Below, piece after piece: positions 1,788 through 31,013 of a stretch of DNA of 64,000 nucleotides. This DNA comes from an uncultured Candidatus Saccharibacteria bacterium (GTDB lineage Bacteria; Patescibacteriota; Minisyncoccia; Phycocordibacterales; SBAW01). The position numbers and the translations under genes are program-made. The notes under the pieces are model-generated. The model searched no databases, was not told where the DNA came from, and saw only the letters and a list, made by a program, of their open reading frames with translations. The stretch is from NCBI GenBank assembly GCA_964650645.1, contig CAZYUH010000001.1, positions 15,373 through 79,372 of the forward strand, in the 5' to 3' direction. Position 1 is the first letter of the stretch; each line of letters opens with the position of its first letter.

Positions 1788-2378
1788 TTATTGGCGTTTG
1801 CGCACAATGAAATGGAAGACGTGCCAGTGCTTGGAATCGCCGGCAGCGGTCGCCCCGTCTTTCTCTTCTTCATCGAACGCGAGTACTTCGTAGCCTGCGC
1901 ACAGCTCCTCAGCCGCCTCTTTCGTAAAATGCACCGTCTTGCCGGTGCCTATCCATCCGTCACGGTCGCCGAACAGCTGGCCCGCGAATACTCCGCCCGG
2001 CTTGAGCGCAGCATGTATCCTGCCCCACACGCCCTCGAAGCTTTCCGCACGCATGAACGGGAGCGAGTACTGCGCGTTCACAAGATCGTACGCTTCGGGA
2101 GGAAACTCATACTCTTCCATGCCTGATATGGCGTAGGAGAACCGGTCCTCGGGAAAGGTATCTGCAATCTCTTGCGCGACGGGCTTTTTGTCGAGCGCCA
2201 CGACACACGCGAACCCCTCCGCGAGCAGGTACGCCGACTCGTTTAAGGCACCCGAACCCAAGTCAAGCGCCGCATCGCGCCCGACAAGATGCTGCAAAGC
2301 CCGCACCAAAAGGCCGCGGGTCTTCTTATTCTTTGTCATCTCGGCGTATTTCTTCCAATCAGTTTCCGCGCCGCTCAT
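1788..2378 (-). CDS. class I SAM-dependent methyltransferase
   Basis: 196 aa. Motif I ALDLGSGALNESAYLLAEG and acidic motif II VVALD. Confidence 0.7.
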   Translation of the reverse strand: MSGAETDWKKYAEMTKNKKTRGLLVRALQHLVGRDAALDLGSGALNESAYLLAEGFACVVALDKKPVAQEIADTFPEDRFSYAISGMEEYEFPPEAYDLVNAQYSLPFMRAESFEGVWGRIHAALKPGGVFAGQLFGDRDGWIGTGKTVHFTKEAAEELCAGYEVLAFDEEEKDGATAAGDSKHWHVFHFIVRKRQ

Positions 2379-2466
2379 AGTATTAATTATGCAATTAATT
2401 CAGTAATTATTGCACAACGGATTTTGGATTATTGGGGTGCTTAGCCCCATTTCATTTCCTCAGGAC

Positions 2467-2594
2467 CTTGCGGTCTTGTACGGGCACCCAGGCGAACTTT
2501 ACGACGGTATTGGACGAACTGGGCAGCATGTTGCGCTCCTAAGGCTATGCTTCTCCGCCCCGAGCCTACCAAAAAGCCGGCCCGCAGGCCAGCT
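2467..2594. repeat. Nudix 5' module, copy B (truncated remnant: MLPSSSNTVVKFAWVPVQDRKVLRK*)
   Basis: The minus strand encodes a 25-codon remnant homologous to the Nudix N-terminus MVPSNTFIKHAWMPVRDRKVLFL, preceded by the same upstream 44-mer. Confidence 0.65.
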
Positions 2595-2600
2595 GCAGAA

Positions 2601-3080
2601 TTACGCCACGGATTTTAAATTATTGGTTGTTTGCTCTTGTCTCTGGAGATGGTTTGCCTGTGTTGAAAATTTATAGTTTTTTACCAAATCTTTTTTCACC
2701 ATCATTTTATATTCGAGTTCCAAATCCGCCCACTCTTTGTATTTTTCATCGAGCTCGTCTTTGATGGAAGTGCCGCCAACCTTTGTTTCAATCAATCCCA
2801 GGAACAACGCTTCAGCATTTTTTTCTATAGATTCAACTGCTGCAGCAACGTCATTAGCTGAGCTAAATTTACCATTCCGGGAAGATTGTCCTATCGACGC
2901 AAGCGAGTCTTTGATAGCTTCTGCATGATGAAGCAAGGTAATAAGTTGCTGCCTATACGCCCTGCCTTCTTCTTTGACTTTTTGCCATTGGAAGTAAGCT
3001 GTAAATCCTGCAGCTACAGCGAGCAATAGACCAAAATTGGGAGAAAAAAGATTACCCAAGCCCGAAATTAAATCTGACAT
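2601..3080 (-). CDS. hypothetical membrane-anchored protein (low-GC gene)
   Basis: 159 aa ORF with an N-terminal hydrophobic helix, Lys/Glu-rich. Local GC is far below the window average. Confidence 0.4.
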   Translation of the reverse strand: MSDLISGLGNLFSPNFGLLLAVAAGFTAYFQWQKVKEEGRAYRQQLITLLHHAEAIKDSLASIGQSSRNGKFSSANDVAAAVESIEKNAEALFLGLIETKVGGTSIKDELDEKYKEWADLELEYKMMVKKDLVKNYKFSTQANHLQRQEQTTNNLKSVA

Positions 3081-3096: not shown

Positions 3097-5568
3097 CTAT
3101 AAGCACACGAAGCTTGCGATAGCATCACCGTCGCGGAGCTTCATGACGCGCACGCCCTGGGTGCTGCGCGAGAGGCTCGGGATTTCCTTGAGCTCGGTGC
3201 GGATGACCTGGCCCTTCTTGGAAACGACGACTATCTCGTCCTCGCCGACGCCCTCTTCCTTTGAAACCACCTTGGCGGCGATGAGCGGGCCGGTCTTCGG
3301 CGTGGTGTTTATGGTCTTGATGCCCGAGCCGCCGCGGTTCTGGTTCTTGTACTCGTCAACGCTCGTGGTCTTGCCGTAGCCGTTCTTGGACACCACCAGC
3401 ACCTCCAGGTTCTTCATGCCTTTCTTTATGACGTCGGCGCCCACCAGCGTGTCGCCGGCACCGAGCTTCATGCCGCGCACGCCGCCAGCACCCCGGCCCA
3501 TGGCGCGGATGTCGGACTCCTTAAAGCGGATGCTCTGTCCCTTGGCGGTCGAGAGGAATATCTCGTCGCCCTTCTCAACAAGCAATGCCGCGATGAGCTC
3601 GTCGCCCTTCTGGAGCTTCATGGCGATGAGGCCCGAGCGGCGCACGTCGTGGAAGGCCGTCGCGTCCACCTTCTTGGCGACGCCCTGCTTGGTGATCATG
3701 TACAGGAACTTCTCGCCCTCCTTCTGGAGCTTGCGCATGGGCAATACGCTCGAGACGCGCTCAGCATCGGAAAGCTGGAGGAAGTTGACTATCGCCTTGC
3801 CCTTGGTGGAGCGCTTGCCCTCCGGGATCTCGTAGAACTTCAGCTGGTAGGCCTTGCCCACGTCGGTAAAGAACAGGAGGTCGCTGTGCGTCGAAGTCGT
3901 GAGGAACGTCGTGACGAAGTCCTCTTCTTTCGTATCCAGATCGATGACGCCCACGCCGCCGCGCTTCTGCTTTCTATACTCCTCGGGGTTGGTGCGCTTC
4001 ACGTAGCCGCCCTGGGTCAGGACCAGGACCTGCTCCTCGTCGGCCACCAGGTCCTCGACGTTGATGACGCCGGCGGCGCCCTTCATGACCTTGGTCTGGC
4101 GCTCGTCGCCGAAGCGCTCGGCCAGCGCCACTATCTCGGTCTTGATGAGCGCGAGCATCTTCTTGTCGCTGCCCAAGAGCGCGGTGAGCTCCTTGATGAG
4201 CGCCTGTATCTCGGCGAGCTCGTCCATGATCTTCTGGCGCTCGAGGTTGGCGAGGCGCGAGAGGCGCATCTCGAGGATGGCCTGCGCCTGGAGGTCGCTG
4301 AACTTGAACTTCTTGACGATGTTGGCGTGCGCCTCGGGCACGTCCTTGGACGCGCGTATGGTCTTGATGAGCTCGTCTATTATGTCGAGCGCCTTGGCGA
4401 GGCCCAGCAATATGTGCTCGCGGTCCTGCGCCTTGGTGAGGTCAAACAGCGTGCGGCGGCGCACGACCTCGCGGCGGTGCTTGATGAACTCCTCCAAAAT
4501 TCCCTTAAGCGAGAGGGTCTGCGGCACGCCGTCCACCAGGACCACCATGTTGAAATGGAACGTGTCCTCGAGCGCGGTGTGCTTGTAGAGGTAGTTGAGC
4601 ACCTTCTGCGGGTGCGCGCCTGACTTCAGCTCGATGACCACACGGATGTCCTTGGACGACTCGTCGCGCAGGCCGCGTATGCCCTCTATCTTCTTGTCGC
4701 GCACCAGGTCGGCGATGCGCATGATGAGGTCGGCCTTGTTGACGCGGTACGGTATGGACGTGACGACGATGGAGAAGTCGCCCTTCTTGCCCTCGACTAT
4801 CTCGGCGTTGCCGCGCACCACCACGCCGCCCTTGCCCGTGGTGTAGGCGTGCAAAAGCGCCTTCTTGTCGAACGCGACCGCGCCCGTCGGGAAGTCGGGG
4901 CCGGTGACGAACTCCATGAGGTCCTCCACCGTGGCGTCGGGGTGCTCGATGAGGTGCGTCAAAGCGCCCGACACCTCGCCCAGGTTGTGCGGCGGAATGG
5001 ACGTTGCCATGCCCACGGCGATGCCGAGCGTGCCGTTGAGCAGGATGTTGGGCACGCCCGCGGGGAGGACGGTCGGCTCCTTGAGCGTGCCGTCGTAGTT
5101 GGGGCGCCACTCCACCGTGTCCTTGTCGAGATCGCTCAGGAGCGCCTCGGACATGCGCGACATCTTGGCCTCGGTGTAGCGGTAGGCCGCCGCCGAGTCG
5201 CCGTCGATGGAACCGAAGTTCCCCTGGCCGAGGATGAGCGGGTAGCGCATGGAGAAGTCCTGGGTCATCTTGACCATCGCGTCGTACACCGACTGGTCGC
5301 CGTGCGGGTGGTACTTGCCGAGCACATCTCCGACGATGGTCGCCGACTTGCGGAAGCGCGCGCCGGGGGTGAGCCCCTGGCGGTGCATGATGTAGAGGAT
5401 GCGGCGGTGCACGGGCTTGAGCCCGTCGCGCACGTCGGGCAGGGCGCGGTCGGTGATGACCGACATCGCGTAGTCGATGAAGCTCTCGCGCATCTCGGCG
5501 GAGATATTGCGGCCCACTATGCCCGTGCCGCCCTGCTCTTTGGTCTTGTGCTCGTCCTTGCCTGCCAT
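3097..5568 (-). CDS. gyrA: DNA gyrase subunit A
   Basis: 823 aa with the GyrA N-terminal signature ([21 protein letters not shown]...[18 protein letters not shown]), active-site region and C-terminal beta-pinwheel repeats. Confidence 0.95.
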
Positions 5569-5831: not shown

Positions 5832-6452
5832 TTATGCGCCCAAAACGACGACTTCGCACTGCTTGCCGTCCAAATCCTTCTTCTTGACGGTCAGCTTCTC
5901 CTCGGCCTTCGTCCCCTCCGCGCCCGCCTCCTTGAGGAACGCCTTGAGCGACTTGTCGTCGTAGTGCATGGGGATGACGACCTTTGGACTGAGCGCGACC
6001 GCCAACTTGTAGGCCTGGGCATGCTCCAGGACGTCGCCCCCGCCCACCGGCACGAACAGGATGTCTATGTTGTCGAGCTCGGCCTTGGCCGCCGACGGAA
6101 GCTCCGGAGAGCCGAGCGCCCCCATGAAGCACAGGGTCATGTTCTCGAGCGAGATGGAGTAGATGGTGTTTATGGCGGGCTTCTTGTCGTACACGGTAGG
6201 AACGCCGAAGCCGCGCACCGCGACCCCCTTCACCTCGTATTCGCCGGGCCCCGAGATGACGAACGGCTGGCGCTCGCCGAAGCCGGCGTTCTCGGTGCCG
6301 TTGAAGTCCTTGTGATCGAGGGTGACGAAGGCCAGGTCGGCGCCGAACTTGGCCGAAGCGAGCGAGGACTGCTTGTCGGGGGGGTTGATGGCAAGGGTAA
6401 GGTCGCCTTGAGCCACCTTGAAGCACTCGCCTCCCAAGAAGCTGATAACCAT
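5832..6452 (-). CDS. MBL-fold metal-dependent hydrolase (UPF0173-like)
   Basis: 206 aa. The N-terminus (MVISFLGGECFKV...) and overall pattern match the UPF0173 metallo-beta-lactamase superfamily. Confidence 0.65.
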   Translation of the reverse strand: MVISFLGGECFKVAQGDLTLAINPPDKQSSLASAKFGADLAFVTLDHKDFNGTENAGFGERQPFVISGPGEYEVKGVAVRGFGVPTVYDKKPAINTIYSISLENMTLCFMGALGSPELPSAAKAELDNIDILFVPVGGGDVLEHAQAYKLAVALSPKVVIPMHYDDKSLKAFLKEAGAEGTKAEEKLTVKKKDLDGKQCEVVVLGA

Positions 6453-6612
6453 GGCCGAAGTATACCAAAATACGGCCCTTTTGCCATCCTTTCGGGGCCT
6501 TTCCTTTACTATATATATGCGCTATACTGCCCCTCAATAAAGGAACTAGCCTTTATTAGCGGCTCGGGACTAATCTCCGCAGGAGGACCCGACCTACAAC
6601 CACATATATAGT

Positions 6613-7707
6613 ATGGACAATCACCACACAGAGGAGTCTTTGCCTGCATCCGTGATGCAGATGTTCGCCGACCAGATACAGACGCCTCCGGCGCCGGGCG
6701 ACATCATAGAGGGCGCCGTGCTCTCGCTTGACCGCGCCCGCCTGTACGTCGACCTGCCCCCGTTCGGCACCGGCGTCATCTACGGCCGCGAGTATATGAA
6801 CGCGCGCGAGGTCATCAAGCGCACCAACGTGGGCGACAAGATAAGCGCCAAGGTCATCTCGACCGACGCGAAGGACGGCTACATCGAGCTGTCGCTGAAG
6901 GAGGCGCGCCAGGCCGCCGCCTGGGCCGAGGCCGAGGACATGGTCAAGAACAAGACCATGCTCGAGCTTACGGTAAAGGAGGCCAACAAGGGCGGCCTCA
7001 TCATGGAGTGGCAGGGCATCGCCGGCTTCCTCCCCGCCTCCCAGCTCAAGGCCGAGCACTATCCGCGCGTGGCCGACGGCGACAAGGACCGCATCCTCGA
7101 CGAGCTCAGGAAGCTCGTGGGCCAGAAGCTCCCGGTCTCGATAATCGGCGCGCAGCCCAAGGAGGGCAAGCTGATCTTCAGCGAGAAGGGCGCCGACGAC
7201 AAGGAGAAGAAGGAACTCATCGCCAACTACGCCGTGGGCGACGCCGTCTCGGGCGACGTGACCGGCATGGTGGACTTCGGCGTGTTCGTGAAGCTCGAGG
7301 AGGGCCTCGAGGGCCTCGTGCACATCTCGGAGATAGACTGGGGCCTCGTGGACGACCCGCGCCACTTCTTCAAGGTGGGCGACAAGGTGAAGGTGAAGAT
7401 AATCGACATCAAGGACGGCAAGGTGTCCCTCTCCGTCAAGGCGCTCAAGGAGAACCCGTGGGAGGCCGCCAAGGGCCGCTACAGCAAGGGCGACAAGGTG
7501 GAGGGCGTGGTCATCAAGTTCAACAAGCATGGCGCTTTGGCGTCCATAGAGGAGGGCATCGCCGGCCTCGTGCACGTGTCGGAGTTCGGCAGCGAGGAGA
7601 AGCTCCGCGCGGCGCTCGAGCTCGGCAAGCGCTACCCGTTCACCATCTCGCTGTTCGAGCCCAAGGACATGCGCATGGCGCTGAACTTTGGAGAGAAGAA
7701 GGCGTAA
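6613..7707 (+). CDS. rpsA: 30S ribosomal protein S1
   Basis: 364 aa with four S1 repeats (G..V.G.V....DFG.FV.L..G..GLVHISE). Confidence 0.85.
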   Translation: MDNHHTEESLPASVMQMFADQIQTPPAPGDIIEGAVLSLDRARLYVDLPPFGTGVIYGREYMNAREVIKRTNVGDKISAKVISTDAKDGYIELSLKEARQAAAWAEAEDMVKNKTMLELTVKEANKGGLIMEWQGIAGFLPASQLKAEHYPRVADGDKDRILDELRKLVGQKLPVSIIGAQPKEGKLIFSEKGADDKEKKELIANYAVGDAVSGDVTGMVDFGVFVKLEEGLEGLVHISEIDWGLVDDPRHFFKVGDKVKVKIIDIKDGKVSLSVKALKENPWEAAKGRYSKGDKVEGVVIKFNKHGALASIEEGIAGLVHVSEFGSEEKLRAALELGKRYPFTISLFEPKDMRMALNFGEKKA

Positions 7708-7728
7708 TCTTAAAGCGCATAAAACAAA

Positions 7729-7757
7729 GGCCGCTCCCTAGCAGGGAGCGGTTTTTG
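7729..7757 (+). terminator. intrinsic terminator after rpsA
   Basis: CCGCTCCCTagcAGGGAGCGG hairpin followed by TTTTTGC. Confidence 0.6.
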
Positions 7758-8124
7758 CTTCTTCTTTCAGCATGCCGAGCACGGTATCGAGCAGGGTCAG
7801 GTGCGAATCGCCCCGGCTGAAGTACTCCGCGCCGTACTTCTCCTTCAGGTGCTCCCTGGTCACAAGCACGCGGTCCCATTGGGAGACGACGAGAAGCTTG
7901 GCGTCCGGGCCGACGGCCCTGCGCACCGTGCTTAGGAACAAGTGGGACTTATTCTTCTCCCAGTCATCAAGGCCGAAATGCACCGCAAGATCGTACTCAT
8001 CAGGAAACCCGCCGACCTCGTCCCACCGGCAGTCAACGCACGCTATGCCGCGGCTCCTGAGCATATCCCTCAGCTCGTACACGTCGAACCTCGTCGTGCC
8101 TTTCACGATCAGGACTTTCTTCAT
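7738..8124 (-). CDS. hypothetical protein
   Basis: 128 aa from MKKVLIV. AAAGGAG ribosome-binding site 6 nt upstream of this ATG. Confidence 0.4.
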   Translation of the reverse strand: MKKVLIVKGTTRFDVYELRDMLRSRGIACVDCRWDEVGGFPDEYDLAVHFGLDDWEKNKSHLFLSTVRRAVGPDAKLLVVSQWDRVLVTREHLKEKYGAEYFSRGDSHLTLLDTVLGMLKEEAKTAPC

Positions 8125-8237
8125 GGGCATCTCCTTTCTGACCAAACCATACGCCATGCGGCATTCGATAGTCAATGCGAGCCGCTGAGGCCCGCACAAA
8201 GAAAAGAGAAGCCGCCGCGGAGTACCGCGGCGGCTTT

Positions 8238-8558
8238 TTATTCACACGCGAGAACATATCCGTGATTGCGCACATGGAAGATCCTGACGCCTTCCAACGC
8301 GCTCTCAAGCTTTCTTTTCAGCCTGCAGACCAGGGCCACCAGCGTCACGCGCTCCGCTCGGCGCCCCTGCCGGCCGTACAGCGCCGCAATAAGCATTCTG
8401 TTCGTAACGAGCGCGCCCGCGCAGAGCGCGAGCGCTTCGAGCAGCTCCGATTGGCGCCTGGAGAGGCGGACAATCTCGCATCCTTTCTTCCTTATGCAGC
8501 GCAGCTGCGGATACAGCGCGGCGCCGTCCGCAAGACGGATTTCTTCCAACGGCCTCAT
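8238..8558 (-). CDS. stand-alone winged-helix DNA-binding protein (OmpR/PhoB C-terminal type)
   Basis: 106 aa. L..RQSELLEAL......V....L...LYG...........L...V.RLKRKL......I.HVRN.GYVL matches the trans_reg_C domain. No receiver domain. Confidence 0.5.
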   Translation of the reverse strand: MRPLEEIRLADGAALYPQLRCIRKKGCEIVRLSRRQSELLEALALCAGALVTNRMLIAALYGRQGRRAERVTLVALVCRLKRKLESALEGVRIFHVRNHGYVLACE

Positions 8559-8590: not shown

Positions 8591-9121
8591 TTATTTCGCG
8601 TTAGTTTCAGTCATCGCGGCCTGCACGCCGTCCTCCAAAATGAGCTCGAGCGCCTCGGCTACTGTCTTTTTGGCCTTCTTGAGCTTTTCTTGCTCGGGCG
8701 GGCGGAATTTGGCCAGCACGAAGTCGGCAAGCTTCTCCGGCGCGGGGCGCTTGAGCTTTCCGGACGGCGTGGCGCCCGATATGCCGATGCGCACGCGCAC
8801 GTAGTCTTTCGTCTTGAGCGCCTTTTCTATGGATTTGACGCCGTTGTGCCCGCCGGCCGAGGAGCCGAACGACACCTTGACCCGTCCCAGGGGCAAATCA
8901 AGCTCGTCATGCAGCACCACGAGCTTCTCGGCGGCTTTCTTGCTCGTTATGAGCTTCTTTATGGGCCCGCCGGAGTTGTTCATGTACACATTAAGCTCGG
9001 CGATCTTCGCCTTTTTCGGCAGGGAGCCTTTCAATTCGCTTAAGAAGTCCTTGCCGATGTTGTGGCGCGTGCCTTCGTACTCCTTATCGGGATTGCCGAG
9101 GCCCACGAGTATCCAGCTCAT
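8591..9121 (-). CDS. pth: peptidyl-tRNA hydrolase
   Basis: 176 aa. MSWILVGLGNPDKEYEGTRHNIG and HNG motifs. Confidence 0.85.
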   Translation of the reverse strand: MSWILVGLGNPDKEYEGTRHNIGKDFLSELKGSLPKKAKIAELNVYMNNSGGPIKKLITSKKAAEKLVVLHDELDLPLGRVKVSFGSSAGGHNGVKSIEKALKTKDYVRVRIGISGATPSGKLKRPAPEKLADFVLAKFRPPEQEKLKKAKKTVAEALELILEDGVQAAMTETNAK

Positions 9122-23320: not shown

Positions 23321-23489
23321 GTCTGCCGCGCGCTCGAGTGCCAGCCCGGGGATATTTTGGAGTACCGGGGGTAGCGGCTTTCGATAGTCCGACCCAAGTG
23401 GGAGAAAATTGGAACCAGCTTATAGGAGAGCTTAACGGCTGGCTCCTCTTTGGGCGGGACCTAGAGGATCAACAGAACTAGTACTGCCA

Positions 23490-24233
23490 TTAGGGATTAG
23501 AAACGGGGTTAAGGGTGGCTTTTATGTCCCCCTCTGCCTTCTCAAACCGAGCAAGCACCTCCTTACAGTACGGATTGTATTTGTATACATCGCGGAACAG
23601 CGCGTCGTCATGCGCCACACTTTCTACCGCGTCCATCAAAAAACCAAAAGAAACTGTATCCACAGCTGTACGCTCAAATCTTCCCTTTTTGACCGTTTGC
23701 CCCACCAAGTGGGTCAGGAACAAAGTTTCGGCTACCAAGCGGTCATGGTCGTCTGTTGTAAGTTCCAAAACTTTTAACTCTGCTTGTCGTAAAAAGTTTA
23801 ATACGCCGCCCATACTATCTTCAGACAAAGACGAGTGACACACGACTATGCGCAAGTCTTTAAGCGAGTTGCCATGCTTGGCATAACTATACGGGCCAAA
23901 CATCGGATGAGTCGCAATGTAGTTTGGAACTCCTTTTTCTTTCAATACCGAAACTGTGTGAGTTTTTACCGTAGCAACATCACAAACAATAGTATTCGCC
24001 CCTAGCAGCTGGAGTGCTTTTTCTATCGTCTCCTCAAAAGCAGATATAGGTACGCACACCAATAACAGGTCGGTTTTGCACACGTCCTCAAACGCGAAAA
24101 AGTCTTTACCGTCTGCCTCTTTGCGAGACGAGAATACTTTCAGAGGGACATGCGGAAATCGCTCTCTTGCAAGCGAAAAAAGAAACTGCCCGAAGTCGCC
24201 AAACCCAATAATGCCAATACTTTTTACTTCCAT
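23490..24233 (-). CDS. prephenate dehydrogenase-like (TyrA family), low-GC
   Basis: 247 aa from MEVKS. IGIIGFGDFGQ NAD-binding motif; PDH-like catalytic region (HPMFGP). Local GC is markedly lower than flanks. Confidence 0.65.
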   Translation of the reverse strand: MEVKSIGIIGFGDFGQFLFSLARERFPHVPLKVFSSRKEADGKDFFAFEDVCKTDLLLVCVPISAFEETIEKALQLLGANTIVCDVATVKTHTVSVLKEKGVPNYIATHPMFGPYSYAKHGNSLKDLRIVVCHSSLSEDSMGGVLNFLRQAELKVLELTTDDHDRLVAETLFLTHLVGQTVKKGRFERTAVDTVSFGFLMDAVESVAHDDALFRDVYKYNPYCKEVLARFEKAEGDIKATLNPVSNP

Positions 24234-24344
24234 ACCTTCATCATGAACCCATTGCACCTAGAATGGAACACCTTGGAAAATACCGTACTACACTGGAAAT
24301 GGGGCCAGACCCAAACATAATACAACTTTTGTGTTCTAGTATTT

Positions 24345-24582
24345 CAGCCCATCAGCCTGGCCCACAGATAATCCAATCGCCGTCACGATTGGATTTCCGC
24401 AGGCCCCGCCTCGGCTGTTTTGCGTGCTCGCAAAACATGCCTCCGGCCGTCAGCCTGGTCACAAGTCGAATTCTGCCGTCGCAGAATCCGCTCGCGACCC
24501 CGCCTCGCGGCCCTGCCAGTGCAGGGCAACGCTGCGGCCGTCACCAGTACGCAAAAACGCGCAGCAGTGCGCGTTTTCGGTC
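24345..24582 (-). repeat. tRNA-trailer conserved multi-hairpin element (copy downstream of tRNA-Glu)
   Basis: On the minus strand: GAAAACGCGCActgcTGCGCGTTTTTGC, then GCAGCGTTGCC-CTGCactgGCAG-GGCCGCGAGG, then GGAGGCATGTTTTGCGagcaCGCAAAAC. Confidence 0.65.
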
Positions 24583-26206: not shown

Positions 26207-26279
26207 GCGCGGTTAGCTCAGTTGGTAGAGCATCCCCTTGACGTGGGGAGGGTCATAGGTTCGAGTCCTATACCGCGCA
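26207..26279 (+). tRNA. tRNA-Val (anticodon GAC)
   Basis: GCGCGGT/ACCGCGC acceptor, D-arm AGCTCAGTTGGTAGAGC, anticodon loop TTGACGT, T-loop GGTTCGAGTCC. Confidence 0.9.
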
Positions 26280-26500
26280 CAGCAGGCAGAACAATCCCGC
26301 TTGAGCGGGATTTTCTGCACTGTGCGGACCGCAGCGATGTTTTGCACTTGCAAAACCGCGCGACGGGATCGCGAAACCATTTTGCGGCGGCAAAAACGGC
26401 ATTTGTGACCACAAGGTCGAAAAAGCAAACCGCTTTGCTTTTTCGCACACGTGTGCGAGCCGGAGCGTTGCCGCGCACCGGCGCGGCTGCGAGGCAGGGA
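26280..26500 (+). repeat. tRNA-trailer conserved multi-hairpin element (copy downstream of tRNA-Val; modules 1 and 2)
   Basis: Shares GCAGCGATGTTTTGCActtGCAAAACCGCGcgacgggaTCGCG with the Phe and Glu trailers. Shares AAAAGCAAAccgcTTTGCTTTTT...GGAGCGTTGCC-hairpin-GGCTGCGAGG with the Arg and Glu trailers. Confidence 0.7.
26294..26319 (+). terminator. intrinsic terminator directly after tRNA-Val (first part of the trailer element)
   Basis: ATCCCGCttgaGCGGGAT hairpin followed by TTTCTGC. Confidence 0.55.
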
Positions 26501-26697
26501 CAAAAGCAAACGTCGATGCCTCTCTGCAGCAGACCCTGGGTGGATATACAGCAATGCGCGCAGCGGAGCGCTAACGCCTGACAGGTACTTTTAGGCGTGG
26601 CTTGCGTAAAAATTATACCGTGGCATTATATCCATTGGAAAAGGGGCCATGGAGGTTTCCTTTAATCCAAAGTTCTTTAACAAAAAAGGAGATTGGC

Positions 26698-27072
26698 GTG
26701 GTCCAGACAGCTGAAATGAGCTCTCTTTCGCGAGAACTCGGGCGTTTCCTTGTAGTGGCGCAGGCGCACAAGCGGGAAACAGGCAAGCAAGCATTCATGC
26801 CCGCTTGTCCCGTGGACACCGAATGGCATCGACTCCTTGAACAGCCGGACGAGTACAACGAGTTCTGCCAGAATACGGTAGGACACACTATCCGTCACGA
26901 ACACGCCCAAGGCAAGGGCGAGGTCGACTGGACAAGAACCTACGAGAAGCTCTACGGCTCATTACCAGAAGTCTGGTTCCGGGACACCAGAGACGCTCTC
27001 AACAGGTCCCAGCGGCAGACCTATCTCGATACCGGGGTATTCTACGCTTCATGGGACTGCACCCCCCTCTAG
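26698..27072 (+). CDS. hypothetical protein (first gene of the low-GC island)
   Basis: 124 aa from a GTG start 6 nt after AAGGAG. No recognisable domain. Confidence 0.35.
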   Translation: MVQTAEMSSLSRELGRFLVVAQAHKRETGKQAFMPACPVDTEWHRLLEQPDEYNEFCQNTVGHTIRHEHAQGKGEVDWTRTYEKLYGSLPEVWFRDTRDALNRSQRQTYLDTGVFYASWDCTPL

Positions 27073-27141
27073 CAACAGGGCGGAGTTGAGACAAAGTCTT
27101 GATTCCGCCCTTTCTTCTATTCAAAAGAAAAGGAGAATAAC

Positions 27142-27948
27142 ATGGAAGACAGGCGAAATACCACAAATCAAGAGAATGATTCGTCACCTCTCCTGACCGT
27201 CCTTACATTCGGAGACAACTTGGCACCGGACATAGAAGGATTCCGCAATTACGTGGCAGAAGTTTCCTCAAACTTCTGCCCGTATGTCGAACCCTCTGCA
27301 ACGAAAGAATGCACGACCTATACCATCGTGCATTCCGACACCACAGACAAAGAAACGGCCGAGAAAATCGTTTTCGCAAGCGGATACGCCCTCTCTGAAC
27401 TGTTACGCAGAAAGAGATCGCTTCTATCGTTAAAGCAGCATGCGCCGCTTCTTTGCGAAAACGCCATCTTCCTATTTCCCCACATCGAGGATGCCTTGGG
27501 TAAGGAATTGCTCGGATGGCCTCACTGGGTGCTTAAATGCCGATACACCCAGCTTGGAGTGCTCTTTGGAAAGTTCTGGAAGAATGCTCAGGAGACAGCT
27601 AAAGACCGGCGAAATCTTCCTGTTCCGCCCTGCCACTTCATCTCCGTGCGGGAGAGTGTGCGGACGCGGGATCCGATATTCTTTGAACAGGCCGAATGGC
27701 TTCGTACTGATCTTGAGTCATCGAATGACGTTGGGCAAAACGCCTTTGGCGATATGTCCGGCACTGAAGATGTTTCTCACGCCCTCAAGGTGTTCTGCGA
27801 CGAGCCGACGCGTTTGAATTTCGAGCACGTACATGCTACGCTGCTCTCGAATAGTTTCTACGCACGAGCAAAAGAGTCGGCAGCCAGAGAACTTGAAGAT
27901 CAAAAACGCCGCAACGCAAGCAAAAAAAGGAGAACCGTATGCAATTAA
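27142..27948 (+). CDS. hypothetical protein
   Basis: 268 aa. AAGGAG ribosome-binding site 8 nt upstream. Overlaps the downstream kinase-like gene by 10 nt. Confidence 0.5.
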   Translation: MEDRRNTTNQENDSSPLLTVLTFGDNLAPDIEGFRNYVAEVSSNFCPYVEPSATKECTTYTIVHSDTTDKETAEKIVFASGYALSELLRRKRSLLSLKQHAPLLCENAIFLFPHIEDALGKELLGWPHWVLKCRYTQLGVLFGKFWKNAQETAKDRRNLPVPPCHFISVRESVRTRDPIFFEQAEWLRTDLESSNDVGQNAFGDMSGTEDVSHALKVFCDEPTRLNFEHVHATLLSNSFYARAKESAARELEDQKRRNASKKRRTVCN

Positions 27949-28832
27949 ACAAAGAAACGCAAAAACTTCTTGCTGAAATCGGACTCGAATACATTGAGAC
28001 GATTTTAGACCGACGGGGCACGCTTGCTCTGCGGGTTTTGAAAAGCAAAAGCGGAAAGCGCGCAGTACTCAAATTGCAGAGCGAAGATGGAAGCGAAGAA
28101 GCCCGCCATAAAGCCAAGCTTCTCGTACGAGAAGCGGAGATGCTTTCACAGGCCCCTGAACTTACCAACCATCTCTATGTTGGCCATGGCGAGAGTCAAG
28201 GGAAGTACTGGCTGCTTCTTCGTGAAGTTGGAGGAGAAAAAATCCATCAAGCTGCAAAGCAGATACAAGAGACCGTCACAGACCAAAAGAAGAGGATTTC
28301 GCAACTCGTAGAACTCCTCCTCAAAGTCTCCAGTTTCTACGATGCACTCTACCATGGCGGTTATCTCCATGGCGACGTGCAACCAGGTCACACCTATCTG
28401 GAGCACAACAAGGCCACCATCATTGACTGGGGTCTTGCAAGAAAAGTGGATGAGCGAAATCCTTTATACAGAGGCGGATTCGTTTACTTTGTAGCTCCTG
28501 AAATTGCGGCAGGAATGCATTCCGGTAAATCACCGATAGCGTACTCTCCGCATGCGGAAGTGTACGCCATAGGCGCAACATTGTATATGCTATACACGGG
28601 ACATCTCGCGCTCGACTTCGGGGTTCCCCAAGCCCAGTTGCGAGAAATCCCGATGAAGCAGAAACTTCAGCATGTCGTGGAGAATCGCATCTCCTCGTTC
28701 GAAGAAGTGGGCGCAGATTCACATCCGCCGCTTGAAGCGCTTATGCGGAAAAGCCTTTCGACTAATCCCGCAGAGCGTTTCGATAACCCATCATCTCTTC
28801 ACCAGCACCTTCGTGAGTTAGGGAGCTTATAA
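27939..28832 (+). CDS. atypical protein kinase-like protein (Hanks/ELK superfamily)
   Basis: 297 aa. VLKL (VAIK-like Lys), EAEML (alphaC Glu), YLHGDVQPGHTYL catalytic loop, IIDWGLARK (DFG-like), VAPE motif. Strong AGGAG ribosome-binding site. Confidence 0.55.
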   Translation: MQLNKETQKLLAEIGLEYIETILDRRGTLALRVLKSKSGKRAVLKLQSEDGSEEARHKAKLLVREAEMLSQAPELTNHLYVGHGESQGKYWLLLREVGGEKIHQAAKQIQETVTDQKKRISQLVELLLKVSSFYDALYHGGYLHGDVQPGHTYLEHNKATIIDWGLARKVDERNPLYRGGFVYFVAPEIAAGMHSGKSPIAYSPHAEVYAIGATLYMLYTGHLALDFGVPQAQLREIPMKQKLQHVVENRISSFEEVGADSHPPLEALMRKSLSTNPAERFDNPSSLHQHLRELGSL

Positions 28833-28855
28833 TCTCCATACTCATATAAAAAATT

Positions 28856-28889
28856 AAAAGGGCAACACATATTGTGTTGCCCTTTTTTC
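28856..28889. terminator. bidirectional terminator between the convergent kinase and HAD genes
   Basis: AAAAGGGCAACACatatTGTGTTGCCCTTTTTT. Confidence 0.65.
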
Positions 28890-29616
28890 ATTTTGCGAGT
28901 AGTTCATCTTCGATAAACTTCGCTATATCTTGCGCTGCATAGTCGCACCATTCGGGTGCGATCTCATATTCTTCATCGGTGTGCAAATCCACGAAACCGG
29001 ATTCACTCAAACCATTACCAACAAGCACCGTACAGAATCCCACCTCCTTGGCAGTCTTCAAGCTGGAAGGGATATCGTCAAACATCCAAATATCCTCCGG
29101 CGGGACATCGAGCCGTTTGATTGTGGCGGCATACACTTCCCGGTGCGGTTTACGGATAAAATTGTTATCTTCGACCGTAAACACGTTGGCAATGTGATCC
29201 TGTAGTCCCAAATGAGAGAGCCCTCGAAGCACGAAAGAGCGATTCGAGTTCGAAAAGACATAGAGTGGCACCCTGCGCGCCAGATGCTCAAGAGCTCTTC
29301 GAAGATTCGGTTTCGGAAACATCATACTAACATCGAGGCTGCCGTAGAGTTCTTCGTAAAACTCAAAAGGATCAACTTTGTGATGTTCCTGCAAGCCAAG
29401 GATGCTTGAGCGGTATTCCGTGCGATACTGGTGCAAAAGCTTTTGAACATCCTTTTCAGGGAGATTCAGCCTTTTCTGCGCGCACATGCGAAATCGCTGT
29501 TTAATCTGACTCTCGATACCAGCACTCGACGGATACAGCGTTCCGTCAAAGTCAAAAATGATTATCTTTGCTTCCCGCTTCAACCTTGACCACTCTTCAG
29601 GTATATTGCCGCTCAT
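28888..29616 (-). CDS. HAD-superfamily hydrolase (pyrimidine 5'-nucleotidase-like)
   Basis: 242 aa. Motif I IIFDFDGTLY, motif II VFSNS, Lys motif, motif IV MFDDIPSS. Confidence 0.7.
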   Translation of the reverse strand: MSGNIPEEWSRLKREAKIIIFDFDGTLYPSSAGIESQIKQRFRMCAQKRLNLPEKDVQKLLHQYRTEYRSSILGLQEHHKVDPFEFYEELYGSLDVSMMFPKPNLRRALEHLARRVPLYVFSNSNRSFVLRGLSHLGLQDHIANVFTVEDNNFIRKPHREVYAATIKRLDVPPEDIWMFDDIPSSLKTAKEVGFCTVLVGNGLSESGFVDLHTDEEYEIAPEWCDYAAQDIAKFIEDELLAK

Positions 29617-29828
29617 TTTCTAACCTCGTCTTTTCAGTTTCGGGTTATCAAAAAACATCTTTTACTGTAAAATATTCTACCCTGATTTTCATAATAAGCA
29701 ATGCGCGTCTAAAAGCACCTGCCGCACACCCCTTCCACATCCTCCAATATCCGCAATATTGTAAACGAACCTCTAACCACACAAAGACAAAAGAAGAAAA
29801 AGCGCCGGCCCTTGGGCCGGCGCTGCTT

Positions 29829-31013
29829 TTACCCGGGTACGAGGTCCCCGTTTATCTGCTTTACGACCTCCAGGACCGACTCGGCGTCGGTCTTGCCGCC
29901 CTTCACCGCCTCGTCGGCGATGATGACGACGCGGGGGTGGGTCATGCCGAACATGTAGAACAGGTACCACCCCTTGCGCCCCTCAACGGGCACGAGCCTG
30001 CGCACTATGGCCGCAAGCGACTGCCCCGCGAAGTCCTGCCCCCTTTTGCTCCCCACCAGGTAGTCGGTAAGCACCGACCCGCCCGCGAGTATGAAGAACC
30101 CGCGGTTGCCGCCGAAAAGGCCGGCGCGCAGGTCGGGCATACGGTCGCCCGCCGAGAGTGTCGTAAACTCCTCGGTCGGAATGCCGGTCGCATGCGCCAC
30201 GCGCCGGAGCACGTGGTTGAACGCCCCCTCCTTGGTAAGCCGCTTATGCGGCACCAGGTAGAGCTGGTAGCGGCCCTTAACCGGATTACTCTCGTCAATG
30301 AACTCGATAGAGCGGGCAATCCGGGCAAGCGACGCCTCCTTCGTGCAGGCGCGGTAGCGGCGTATCCGCTCGCGCACCAGCTTCTTCCACTCGCACCCGT
30401 CTACGCCGGGCTTGGCGGTTATCTCGAAGCGGCATTCGACCTCCTGGACGTCAGCGAGGCCGTTCTTGTAATTGTCGGGTTCCTCAAGATGCGAGAAGCC
30501 GCCGCGTATCAGATTGTCCGCATCCACGTACTCGAGCAGGAGCCGGACGGAGCGCTTCCAATGCTCCCGCTCCACTTCGTAGCGAGCATAGTACTCCTTG
30601 TCCGGGTAATACGCGCCGTTGCGCCGTATCCATATCCCTTCCCCGATGCTGTGTATCGCATCAGGGTCGGCCAGATGGGCGTATTTGCGCATGGTAGAGA
30701 GCGGCCGGCACACGCGCCTGCCGTTCTCCGTAGAGCATTTCGGCTCGAGCCGGGAAAACCCGGCCTTCCGCGACGCGGCGAGCGCGCCCTCGCTCATGCA
30801 GAGCTCGGGCGTGCGCGCCGTTGTCAGGACGTATCCGCCGTGCGTCTCAAGAATCTCCCGTATTTCGCGCCGGGCCCCAAGCTCCGCATCGGACGGGTAG
30901 TCCGAATACGAGGAAAGAGTCCCGTCTATATCCAGCAAAGAAATAAGCCTGCTCCTTCCCGCTTTTTCCGCAAGATCAGTATGAGCGTATGCACATTCGC
31001 CTCGTGCAAGCAT
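29829..31013 (-). CDS. hypothetical protein with N-terminal HAD-like DxDGT motif
   Basis: 394 aa from MLARGE. AAGGA ribosome-binding site. LLDIDGTLS motif. The upstream in-frame extension is antisense to tsaD and probably non-coding. Confidence 0.45.
   Translation of the reverse strand: MLARGECAYAHTDLAEKAGRSRLISLLDIDGTLSSYSDYPSDAELGARREIREILETHGGYVLTTARTPELCMSEGALAASRKAGFSRLEPKCSTENGRRVCRPLSTMRKYAHLADPDAIHSIGEGIWIRRNGAYYPDKEYYARYEVEREHWKRSVRLLLEYVDADNLIRGGFSHLEEPDNYKNGLADVQEVECRFEITAKPGVDGCEWKKLVRERIRRYRACTKEASLARIARSIEFIDESNPVKGRYQLYLVPHKRLTKEGAFNHVLRRVAHATGIPTEEFTTLSAGDRMPDLRAGLFGGNRGFFILAGGSVLTDYLVGSKRGQDFAGQSLAAIVRRLVPVEGRKGWYLFYMFGMTHPRVVIIADEAVKGGKTDAESVLEVVKQINGDLVPG

Follow-up and report, generated by a model that had tools for sequence, protein, structure and literature searches.

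We analysed a stretch of 64,000 nucleotides (the window) from an uncultured Candidatus Saccharibacteria bacterium (assembly GCA_964650645.1, contig CAZYUH010000001.1), with attention to a low-GC island that lies beside a tRNA-Val gene and carries a cassette of four genes. All coordinates are those of the window unless a related locus is named. An earlier reading of the same DNA, made from the letters without database searches (the sequence-only reading), had placed the four open reading frames (ORFs) at 26698–27072, 27142–27948 and 27939–28832 on the plus strand and at 28888–29616 on the minus strand, and these coordinates stood. The first gene (26698–27072, plus strand) was recognised as an ORF with a ribosome-binding site and 112 related protein clusters. 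It starts with GTG and encodes a protein of 124 aa, p124, which ends in SWDCTPL and is our candidate for a substrate or scaffold. The second gene (27142–27948, plus strand) encodes p268, a divergent DUF6875/cytochrome P422-like protein of 268 aa and a putative Cys-ligated heme enzyme, assigned by PF21780 and by conserved motifs. The third gene (27939–28832, plus strand), identified by its Pkinase match, encodes an atypical kinase of 297 aa resembling eukaryotic-type protein kinases (ePKs). The fourth gene (28888–29616, minus strand) encodes a haloacid dehalogenase (HAD)-IA phosphatase of 242 aa, SDT1-like or nucleotidase-like.

Each of the three co-directional genes has the sequence AGGAG 6–7 nt ahead of its start, and the p268 and kinase genes overlap by 10 nt, as already seen in the sequence-only reading. 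Right after the p124 stop codon, at 27077–27111 (plus strand), the terminator scan and folding revealed a strong attenuator- or terminator-like stem-loop with a U-rich tract (dG −33.8 kcal/mol, z −7.4). Hairpins of unrelated sequence occupied the same place in eight of the nine other loci that were folded. They clearly exceeded shuffled sequences in six loci (L022, L023, L024, L026, L033, and L034) and were marginal in two (L021 and L025); the ninth locus, L019, had only a weak 8-bp stem after p124. Such an arrangement probably allows strong expression of the first gene, with some transcripts reading through into the genes for the enzymes. The repeat and terminator scans also located a hairpin at 28856–28886, a perfect palindrome of 14 bp flanked by T-runs on either side, which lies between the convergent kinase and HAD genes and is presumably a terminator for both directions.

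Our tentative reading is that the locus is a mobile four-gene cassette which modifies its own small protein by means of a heme enzyme, a kinase, and a HAD phosphatase. From sequence evidence we hold this to be possible and to fall somewhat short of probable. Confidence in the mechanistic chain is moderate to low; the anatomy of the locus itself is secure.

Proteins of the cassette

None of the models in the Pfam copy scanned matched p124, and the precomputed annotations of the protein collection assign it to PF27765 (UCP032817-like). The family comprises 112 clusters from bacteria of the Candidate Phyla Radiation (CPR), Streptomyces, and other bacteria. Its invariant residues include D40, W43, H44, H67, W78, Y82, W93, F94, and Y109 and, at the C-terminus, W119, D120, C121, and P123. 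All motif occurrences in the family (124/124) read [AML][SEA]WDC[TS...]P, hereafter the WDCxP motif. Ten of the 112 clusters contained two to four tandem units of [AML][SEA]WDC[TS]P[GA]F; protein P0057 carried four 'SG(K/Q)(L/M)I(A/M)SWDCTP' units, and P0075, P0078, and P0081 carried three each. The AlphaFold2 (AF2) model of p124 was a compact domain (predicted local distance difference test, pLDDT, 94.8), in which the YASWDCTP strand (residues 116–123) pairs with strand 67–75; a Foldseek search with this model yielded no fold match in the PDB. Among the invariant residues of p124 there is no Ser or Thr, and the only Tyr residues are Y82 and Y109. The Ser and Thr of SWDCTP were considered as kinase targets and rejected, since neither flanking position is constant (S/E/A occur before W and T/S/V/G/D/I after C). 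A supposed likeness of the p124 N-terminus to GRDP/DUF1399 was dropped, as nine members gave no Pfam match to it even at E ≤ 10.

The second protein, p268, matched PF21780 (DUF6875) with 28.1 bits (cut-off 24.5; E 2.6e-6) over residues 44–188 and profile positions 24–161 of 178. Both proteins upstream of the kinase had seemed unrecognisable from the letters; they are instead a conserved WDCxP-motif protein of the UCP032817-like family and a divergent DUF6875/cytochrome P422 member. DUF6875 was the sole family matched by 35 of 40 members of the p268 subfamily (E ≤ 0.01), sampled family members reached 17–31 bits on its model, and an exhaustive search with a hidden Markov model recovered only 222 p268-like clusters at 50% identity in 1.84 billion. 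Because of this small number, these scores, and the exclusive match to DUF6875, p268 appears to belong to a small clade that is sister to the characterised P422s, and we treat it as a peripheral, divergent member of the cytochrome P422/DUF6875 family. No relative with a solved structure was found for p268 by profile search, and its AF2 model (pLDDT 81) had no match in the PDB by Foldseek.

DUF6875 proteins were renamed cytochrome P422 in a preprint of December 2025, which describes them as enzymes with a Cys-ligated b-type heme and with L-Trp as substrate, hydroxylated at N1, C6, or C7; the characterised members are Mc170, Ba855, Ss890, and ThnD, the last of which forms an intramolecular indole C–S bond (bioRxiv 10.64898/2025.12.11.692455). 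The crystal structure of Mc170 defined the heme motif RxGxVCP, with C58 as the axial heme ligand, and the substrate motifs Dx2(Q/H)x3K, MxGxF, and Rx(M/L)x3Dx2F; P422s clamp the indole of Trp over the heme, and in ThnD N-hydroxylation is followed by thiol addition (bioRxiv 10.64898/2025.12.11.692455). ZigI, another family member, performs C7 hydroxylation according to a second paper.

Conservation in p268 was assessed on an alignment of 40 subfamily sequences, down to about 20% identity; for scanning of loci we used alignment A1, the broader A6 being too divergent. Invariant positions were C46, N107, K132, G143, F145, and R170, and P47, H128, W129, D177, F180, and F181 were conserved in at least 90% of the sequences. 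Except for N107 and W129, these positions map to the published heme-ligand and Trp-binding motifs of P422s, in the same order and with nearly the same spacing. C46 and P47, in the sequence SSNFCPY, stand at the expected N-terminal place of the heme motif. The substrate motifs follow as H128-x3-K132, L141-F-G143-K-F145, and R170...D177-x2-F180, in the order known from P422, with spacings of 4, 9, 4, and 25 vs. 4, 9, 4, and 27 in Mc170. Leu replaces the Met of MxGxF. An additional motif, C105-E106-N107 (N107 invariant, C105 nearly so), lies outside the published P422 motifs.

The kinase matched PF00069 (Pkinase) with 48.3 bits (cut-off 31.7), and its closest solved relatives by profile search were TTK, B-Raf, PknE, and StkP. 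The core kinase motifs read from the letters are present, and the catalytic residues are invariant among relatives (K45, E65, D146, D163, APE186–188, and R280). The catalytic loop is HGDVQPxH (HGDVQPGH in the window, HADVQPTN in Streptomyces) and not the canonical HRDxKxxN: Arg is exchanged for Gly/Ala, the Lys of Ser/Thr kinases for Gln, and, in the CPR copies, Asn for His. The Gly-rich GxGxxG loop is missing, and the invariant pair R25-R26 is found there. A weak Pfam match to the aminoglycoside phosphotransferase (APH) family covered the catalytic loop (19.3 bits). The best NCBIfam match was LanL, with 44 bits against a cut-off of 650. The sequence-only reading had called the kinase atypical, with a catalytic loop closer to APH/ChoK/UbiB-type kinases than to canonical Hanks kinases. 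This is a fair description of the APH-like loop; the fold is overall Hanks-type, with the APE motif and the Arg of subdomain XI. The protein is, as judged from these matches, a Hanks-type fold with an APH-like small-molecule-kinase catalytic loop.

The fourth protein matched the Pfam models Hydrolase (82.9 bits) and HAD_2 (71.1 bits) and has an intact motif I, DFDGT, in agreement with its description as a nucleotidase-like HAD in the sequence-only reading. It matched TIGR01993, the pyrimidine 5′-nucleotidase equivalog, over the full length with 134.4 bits, which is below the cut-off of 142.9. The closest solved structures were the plant xanthosine monophosphate (XMP) phosphatase 7ef6 and yeast SDT1/SSM1.

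The same enzymes could serve a pathway of free Trp or indole. Here p268 would hydroxylate a small molecule, the kinase would O-phosphorylate the hydroxy-indole as in a PsiH/PsiK-like pair, the HAD would recycle, and p124 would be an accessory factor, such as a regulator, carrier, or redox partner. The substrates of all characterised P422s are free Trp or small molecules derived from it, and the His/Lys pair that anchors the carboxylate is conserved in p268. The HGD-type kinase loop, as in the APH family, with the weak APH match, speaks for such a substrate too; against it, the kinase is overall an ePK, and its APE motif and C-lobe helices are typical for protein or peptide substrates. The HAD is closest to small-molecule nucleoside monophosphate phosphatases. 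The compact domain of p124 could bind a metal through invariant His, Met, and Cys; tandem WDCxP units, on the other hand, would be hard to explain in a carrier or redox partner, and the hairpin after p124 implies that this protein is needed in excess. Unlike the neighbourhoods of canonical P422s, those of the cassette contain no Trp-metabolism genes. We consider a free-Trp pathway unlikely and prefer the modification of p124 by its own cassette.

Insertion of the island beside tRNA-Val

The sharp drop in GC content that the sequence-only reading had reported beside tRNA-Val was borne out. The mean GC content of the window is 62.6%, and that of positions 26581–29800 is 48.8%, the lowest of any 3.2-kb stretch and about 3.6 standard deviations under the mean of 3.2-kb windows. 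The GC content at third codon positions (GC3) shifted as well: it was 0.67, 0.55, 0.50, and 0.52 for p124, p268, the kinase, and the HAD, respectively, and 0.82 and 0.80 for the flanking gene of 369 aa and for tsaD.

The host gene at the insertion point is tRNA-Val(GAC), at 26207–26280 (plus strand; ARAGORN; 69 bits on the Rfam tRNA model). It is also present in two related metagenomic genomes (L044 and L045) whose TsaD proteins are 83% and 82% identical, respectively, to that of the window. By its own TsaD the host falls among Parcubacteria, with Candidatus Adlerbacteria as the best named match (70%). L044 and L045 share the order of glyoxalase, tRNA-Val, a 394-aa gene, TsaD, IleRS, PrsW, and HSP20, and in both the interval from tRNA-Val to the 394-aa gene is empty; tblastn detected none of the four cassette proteins within 10 kb of these sites. 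Since the related genomes have the tRNA-Val/TsaD neighbourhood without the cassette, the island is a true insertion, and the presence/absence polymorphism expected by the sequence-only reading was found at tRNA-Val. In the alignment to the empty site of L045, homology stops at about 26429 and restarts at 29776, which places the low-GC inserted island at about 26430–29775 (3.35 kb; about 0.49 GC vs. 0.63 in the remaining window) and corrects the borders of 26580 and 29650 proposed from composition. The left junction (26405–26429, GTGACCACAAGGTCGAAAAAGCAAA), located by local alignment to positions 8616–8642 of the L045 site, and the right junction (29776–29800, ACCACACAAAGACAAAAGAAGAAAAAG), located by alignment to the same site, overlap one segment of about 24 nt of the empty site and are therefore the two copies of a short imperfect duplication. 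The duplicated segment is non-tRNA sequence. The sequence-only reading was right that the island lacks an integrase (in the ORF list of the window) and that the tRNA 3′ end is not repeated; it had missed the duplication at the junctions. The locus is a horizontally acquired accessory island beside tRNA-Val.

Several observations concern the surroundings of the insertion. The stretch of about 400 nt between tRNA-Val and p124 (26281–26697) contains several perfect hairpins, e.g., at 26418–26445 (CGAAAAAGCAAA/TTTGCTTTTTCG) and at 26295–26312; about 150 nt of it, up to about 26429, are host sequence also present at the empty site. In this leader and elsewhere in the island, no riboswitch or small RNA exceeded the Rfam threshold; the tRNA alone did. 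The tRNA-Val gene of L044 (8532–8605) is inverted relative to that of the window and of L045, so the tRNA-Val region may be a rearrangement hot spot in this lineage. On the other side, the island adjoins a host gene (29829–30938, minus strand) for a conserved protein of 369–394 aa without a Pfam match, which is next to tsaD in all related genomes examined. A viral origin of the island was considered and rejected, as there were no relatives in IMG/VR and PHROGs returned only generic kinase and HAD matches.

Two other low-GC patches are present in the window. One (23350–24400, about 45% GC) lies by tRNA-Glu and tRNA-Ser and contains an ORF of 255 aa (23490–24257, minus strand), dehydrogenase-like, with an N-terminal GxGxxG NAD-binding motif; the closely related strain L007 is not alignable to positions 23373–24294, and this may be another strain-variable insertion. 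The other patch (2001–3080, about 46–49% GC) is next to gyrA and contains an ORF of 159 aa (2601–3080, minus strand).

Recurrence and variants of the cassette

Exact-protein look-up retrieved at least 23 near-identical contigs, all of one strain cluster. More distant four-gene copies, with p268 36–78% identical, were found among unrelated flanks in Candidatus Yanofskybacteria, Nomurabacteria, Kerfeldbacteria, Moraniibacteriota, two Saccharibacteria lineages, and further metagenome contigs. In every locus examined (about 20 distinct loci), p124 adjoined p268 or was fused to it. One fusion, P0279, consists of p124 ending in TSWDCVP, a linker, and a p268-like domain; another, P0260, joins the C-terminal part of a p268-like protein to a kinase. 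Wherever a CPR locus had enough sequence, the HAD gene adjoined the cassette; it did so too in L046, where it accompanies p124, a p268-like protein, and the kinase. The HAD gene was convergent with the kinase gene in the window, L017, L019, L021, and L023; it followed that gene in the same direction in L022, L025, and L026 and preceded p124, again co-directionally, in L046/L047. The start/stop overlap of the HAD and kinase genes in L022 points to translational coupling. The inclusion of the HAD in the module by the sequence-only reading is thus upheld by its recurrence in all three arrangements. From the locus survey and the fusions, the cassette has a constant core of p124 and p268, to which the kinase is usually added as a third member and, in CPR bacteria, the HAD regularly as a fourth.

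Streptomyces loci contained p124 (138 aa), a p268-like protein of 209 aa, the kinase, and a GNAT acetyltransferase, and no HAD. A contig of 25% GC (L043) had only p124 and a p268-like gene, the two pointing away from each other, with no kinase, and ABC-2 transporter genes after p124. A natural deletion of 26372–27659 was found in two metagenome samples (junctions at 3245/3246 in L003 and 41/42 in L006); a CGGGATC microhomology joins position 26371 to 27660. It removed p124, its leader, and the first 173 codons (two thirds) of p268, and the kinase and HAD genes were kept. In Streptomyces sparsogenes, strain ATCC 25498 (L027, positions 6233–8394) has a decayed copy in which only 61 aa of p124 remain, directly beside a NUDIX gene, a 141-aa p268 fragment has lost the Cys-Pro region, and a stop codon interrupts the extended kinase frame; in another strain (L030), p124 and p268 are intact and the kinase is missing. 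NUDIX genes near L016, L017, and L027 were considered as a further part of the cassette and, their position being inconsistent, were treated as coincidence.

These variants bear on a toxin–antitoxin system, in which the kinase would be the toxin and would be neutralised by an upstream protein or by the HAD. The compactness of the operon, its overlapping genes, and its place on a mobile island would suit such a system, a kinase and a phosphatase could be antagonists, and kinase toxins such as HipA exist. The cassette has, against this, four genes with enzyme-like, strongly conserved active-site residues, and scans of Pfam and NCBIfam matched none of the four proteins to a toxin or antitoxin family. 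L003 and L006 keep the kinase and HAD without p124 and most of p268, and L030 and L043 keep p124 and p268 without the kinase. The loss of either half argues against strict addiction; the argument is indirect, because the deletion may also remove the promoter. We regard a toxin–antitoxin system as highly improbable.

A role in anti-phage defence or another conflict deserves more weight. The kinase would then be an effector or transducer, p124 and p268 would sense or generate a signal, the HAD would reset the system or deplete nucleotides, and the cassette would spread as defence cargo. The accessory nature of the island, its presence/absence polymorphism, and its horizontal transfer between phyla are in line with this, as is the resemblance of the HAD to nucleotidases. 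Several copies outside CPR lie among restriction or mobile-element genes: L046/L047 have GmrSD, HsdM (type I restriction–modification), an N6_N4 methyltransferase, ImmA/IrrE, Replic_Relax, and a large serine recombinase as neighbours, the P0057 locus adjoins an NmeDI-type endonuclease and a helicase, and L031 adjoins a weak SIR2_2-like protein and an SWI2/SNF2 helicase. The CPR loci, in contrast, have ordinary housekeeping neighbours, and the cassette was not found on viral contigs of IMG/VR. In PADLOC-DB v2.0.0 the kinase matched the PD-T4-6 and MAD6 models (E 1e-15 to 1e-11), by its generic kinase domain only; neither the families of p124 and p268 nor the HAD of the window had a significant match there (chance level, E 0.002–0.01). 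A defence role also leaves the repeated WDCxP motif and the conserved Trp-clamp and heme-ligand residues unexplained. The sequence-only reading had favoured defence or a toxin–antitoxin system, and neither obtained direct support, given the generic kinase match in PADLOC and the variants that lost one or the other half of the cassette. We find a defence role doubtful and return to the cassette as a system that modifies p124.

Proposed modification of p124 and comparison with known systems

In the mechanism that we propose, p268 would be a Cys-ligated heme enzyme like the characterised P422s, and its substrate would be the invariant C-terminal Trp-Asp-Cys-x-Pro of p124 and not free Trp. It would oxidise Trp119 to hydroxy-Trp and/or generate a Trp119–Cys121 (i, i+2) thioether crosslink; the latter option comes from the chemistry of ThnD. 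The carboxylate that the His128/Lys132 pair binds in P422s acting on free Trp may here come from the invariant Asp120. The kinase would phosphorylate the modified motif or protein and so either activate the new hydroxyl as a leaving group, by LanL-type logic, or switch the product. With no invariant Ser or Thr in p124 and an unusual kinase loop, the phospho-acceptor may be the new hydroxyl or a Tyr. The HAD would take off the phosphate added by the kinase, and the hairpin after p124 would let this protein be made in excess over the enzymes. Evidence for p124 as the substrate is the invariance of WDCxP, the tandem units, the hairpin after the gene, and the transporter genes of L043.

A number of observations weigh against this proposal. 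The p124 of the window has a single WDCxP motif, and the predicted packing of the motif strand in a folded domain is unlike the floppy core of a ribosomally synthesised and post-translationally modified peptide (RiPP); the modelled fold would also fit an enzyme subunit or a metal- or cofactor-binding protein. The P422 match of the p268 family is weak. The R, G, and V of RxGxVCP are unconserved in p268, as is the Asp with which SBR2, Dx2(Q/H)x3K, begins, and R170 and D177 are seven residues apart vs. six in the published SBR1. The PDB copy searched held no P422 structure, which left no fold to compare. A protease or exporter is encoded neither in the window cassette nor in the CPR loci, ABC-2 transporter genes being confined to L043, and no redox partner (ferredoxin or reductase) is encoded near the cassette. 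CPR bacteria are generally not known to synthesise heme. The HAD, finally, appears by its matches closest to nucleotide monophosphatases that act on small molecules.

A more far-reaching version is that the cassette represents a new class of peptide or protein modification, in which P422-type oxidation of the Trp in repeated WDCxP units, phosphorylation of the new hydroxyl by the kinase, and displacement by Cys would lead to a tryptathionine-like (i, i+2) crosslink, or alternatively to phospho-hydroxy-Trp or a redox group resembling cysteine tryptophylquinone. The HAD would proofread or reset the modification, and the cassette would move horizontally between CPR phyla and actinomycetes and so equip symbionts of minimal genome with heme-dependent tailoring. 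This version is improbable in our view. Full-text searches of the literature found no description of the cassette, and the P422 preprint makes no mention of kinases, phosphatases, or Patescibacteria. What appears to be new here is a putative P422 enzyme in a presumably protein-directed, kinase-coupled context, an architecture absent from the preprint. P422s were described only in late 2025, as hydroxylases of free Trp and as C–S bond formers, and the cassette points to a sister clade that seems directed at a small protein of its own and is linked genetically with a kinase and a phosphatase. If the proposal is true, heme oxidation combined with phosphorylation would be a new enzyme logic for the modification of Trp and Cys in ribosomal products and a bacterial counterpart to tryptathionine-type chemistry. 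It would also mean that a module for heme-dependent tailoring is exchanged among CPR bacteria (Patescibacteria), which are considered to lack both heme synthesis and the greater part of secondary metabolism. With homologues in Streptomyces, a tractable host, the hypothesis is open to direct testing.

Of the known systems, the P422s themselves share with p268 a size of about 200–270 aa, a Cys-Pro near the N-terminus at the place of the heme ligand, and the order of motifs. They differ in setting: p268 is always paired or fused with the WDCxP protein and usually accompanied by the kinase, whereas canonical P422s sit with Trp-metabolism or nonribosomal peptide synthetase genes. The p268 clade occurs in CPR bacteria, which are not among the P422 hosts of the preprint. 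PD-T4-6 and Stk2, which are defence systems made up of one Ser/Thr kinase gene, and the kinase MAD6 of the MADS system resemble the cassette in the kinase-domain match and in the accessory-island setting; partners like p124, p268, and the HAD are found neither in those systems nor in PADLOC. The SDT1/SSM1 nucleotidases and XMP phosphatase are the closest structures to the cassette HAD, which has intact HAD motifs; unlike them, it is genetically tied to the kinase/P422 cassette, not to nucleotide metabolism, and stays below the equivalog cut-off.

The kinase domains of LanKC and LanL (class III/IV lanthipeptide synthetases) are likewise ePK-like and, as proposed here, encoded with a peptide-modifying system; the analogy would extend to a phosphorylated hydroxyl activated for attack by a Cys thiol. 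The cassette kinase, in contrast, stands alone without lyase or cyclase domains and scores far below the LanL cut-off, its loop is HGDVQPxH vs. HRDxKPxN, and the WDCxP motif has no conserved Ser or Thr. RiPPs crosslinked by P450 enzymes (biarylitides, atropitides) and multi-core RiPP precursors offer another comparison. The cassette resembles them in having a small gene beside a heme-thiolate oxidase, here a putative one, a short aromatic motif with candidate crosslink partners at i and i+2 (W-D-C), and an attenuator-like hairpin after the first gene; the tandem units of some p124 relatives recall multi-core precursors. It departs from these systems in that the candidate enzyme is of the P422 and not the P450 type, that the "leader" of p124 is a folded domain of 110 residues into which the AF2 model packs the core strand, and that the cassette encodes no protease or exporter but a kinase and a phosphatase.

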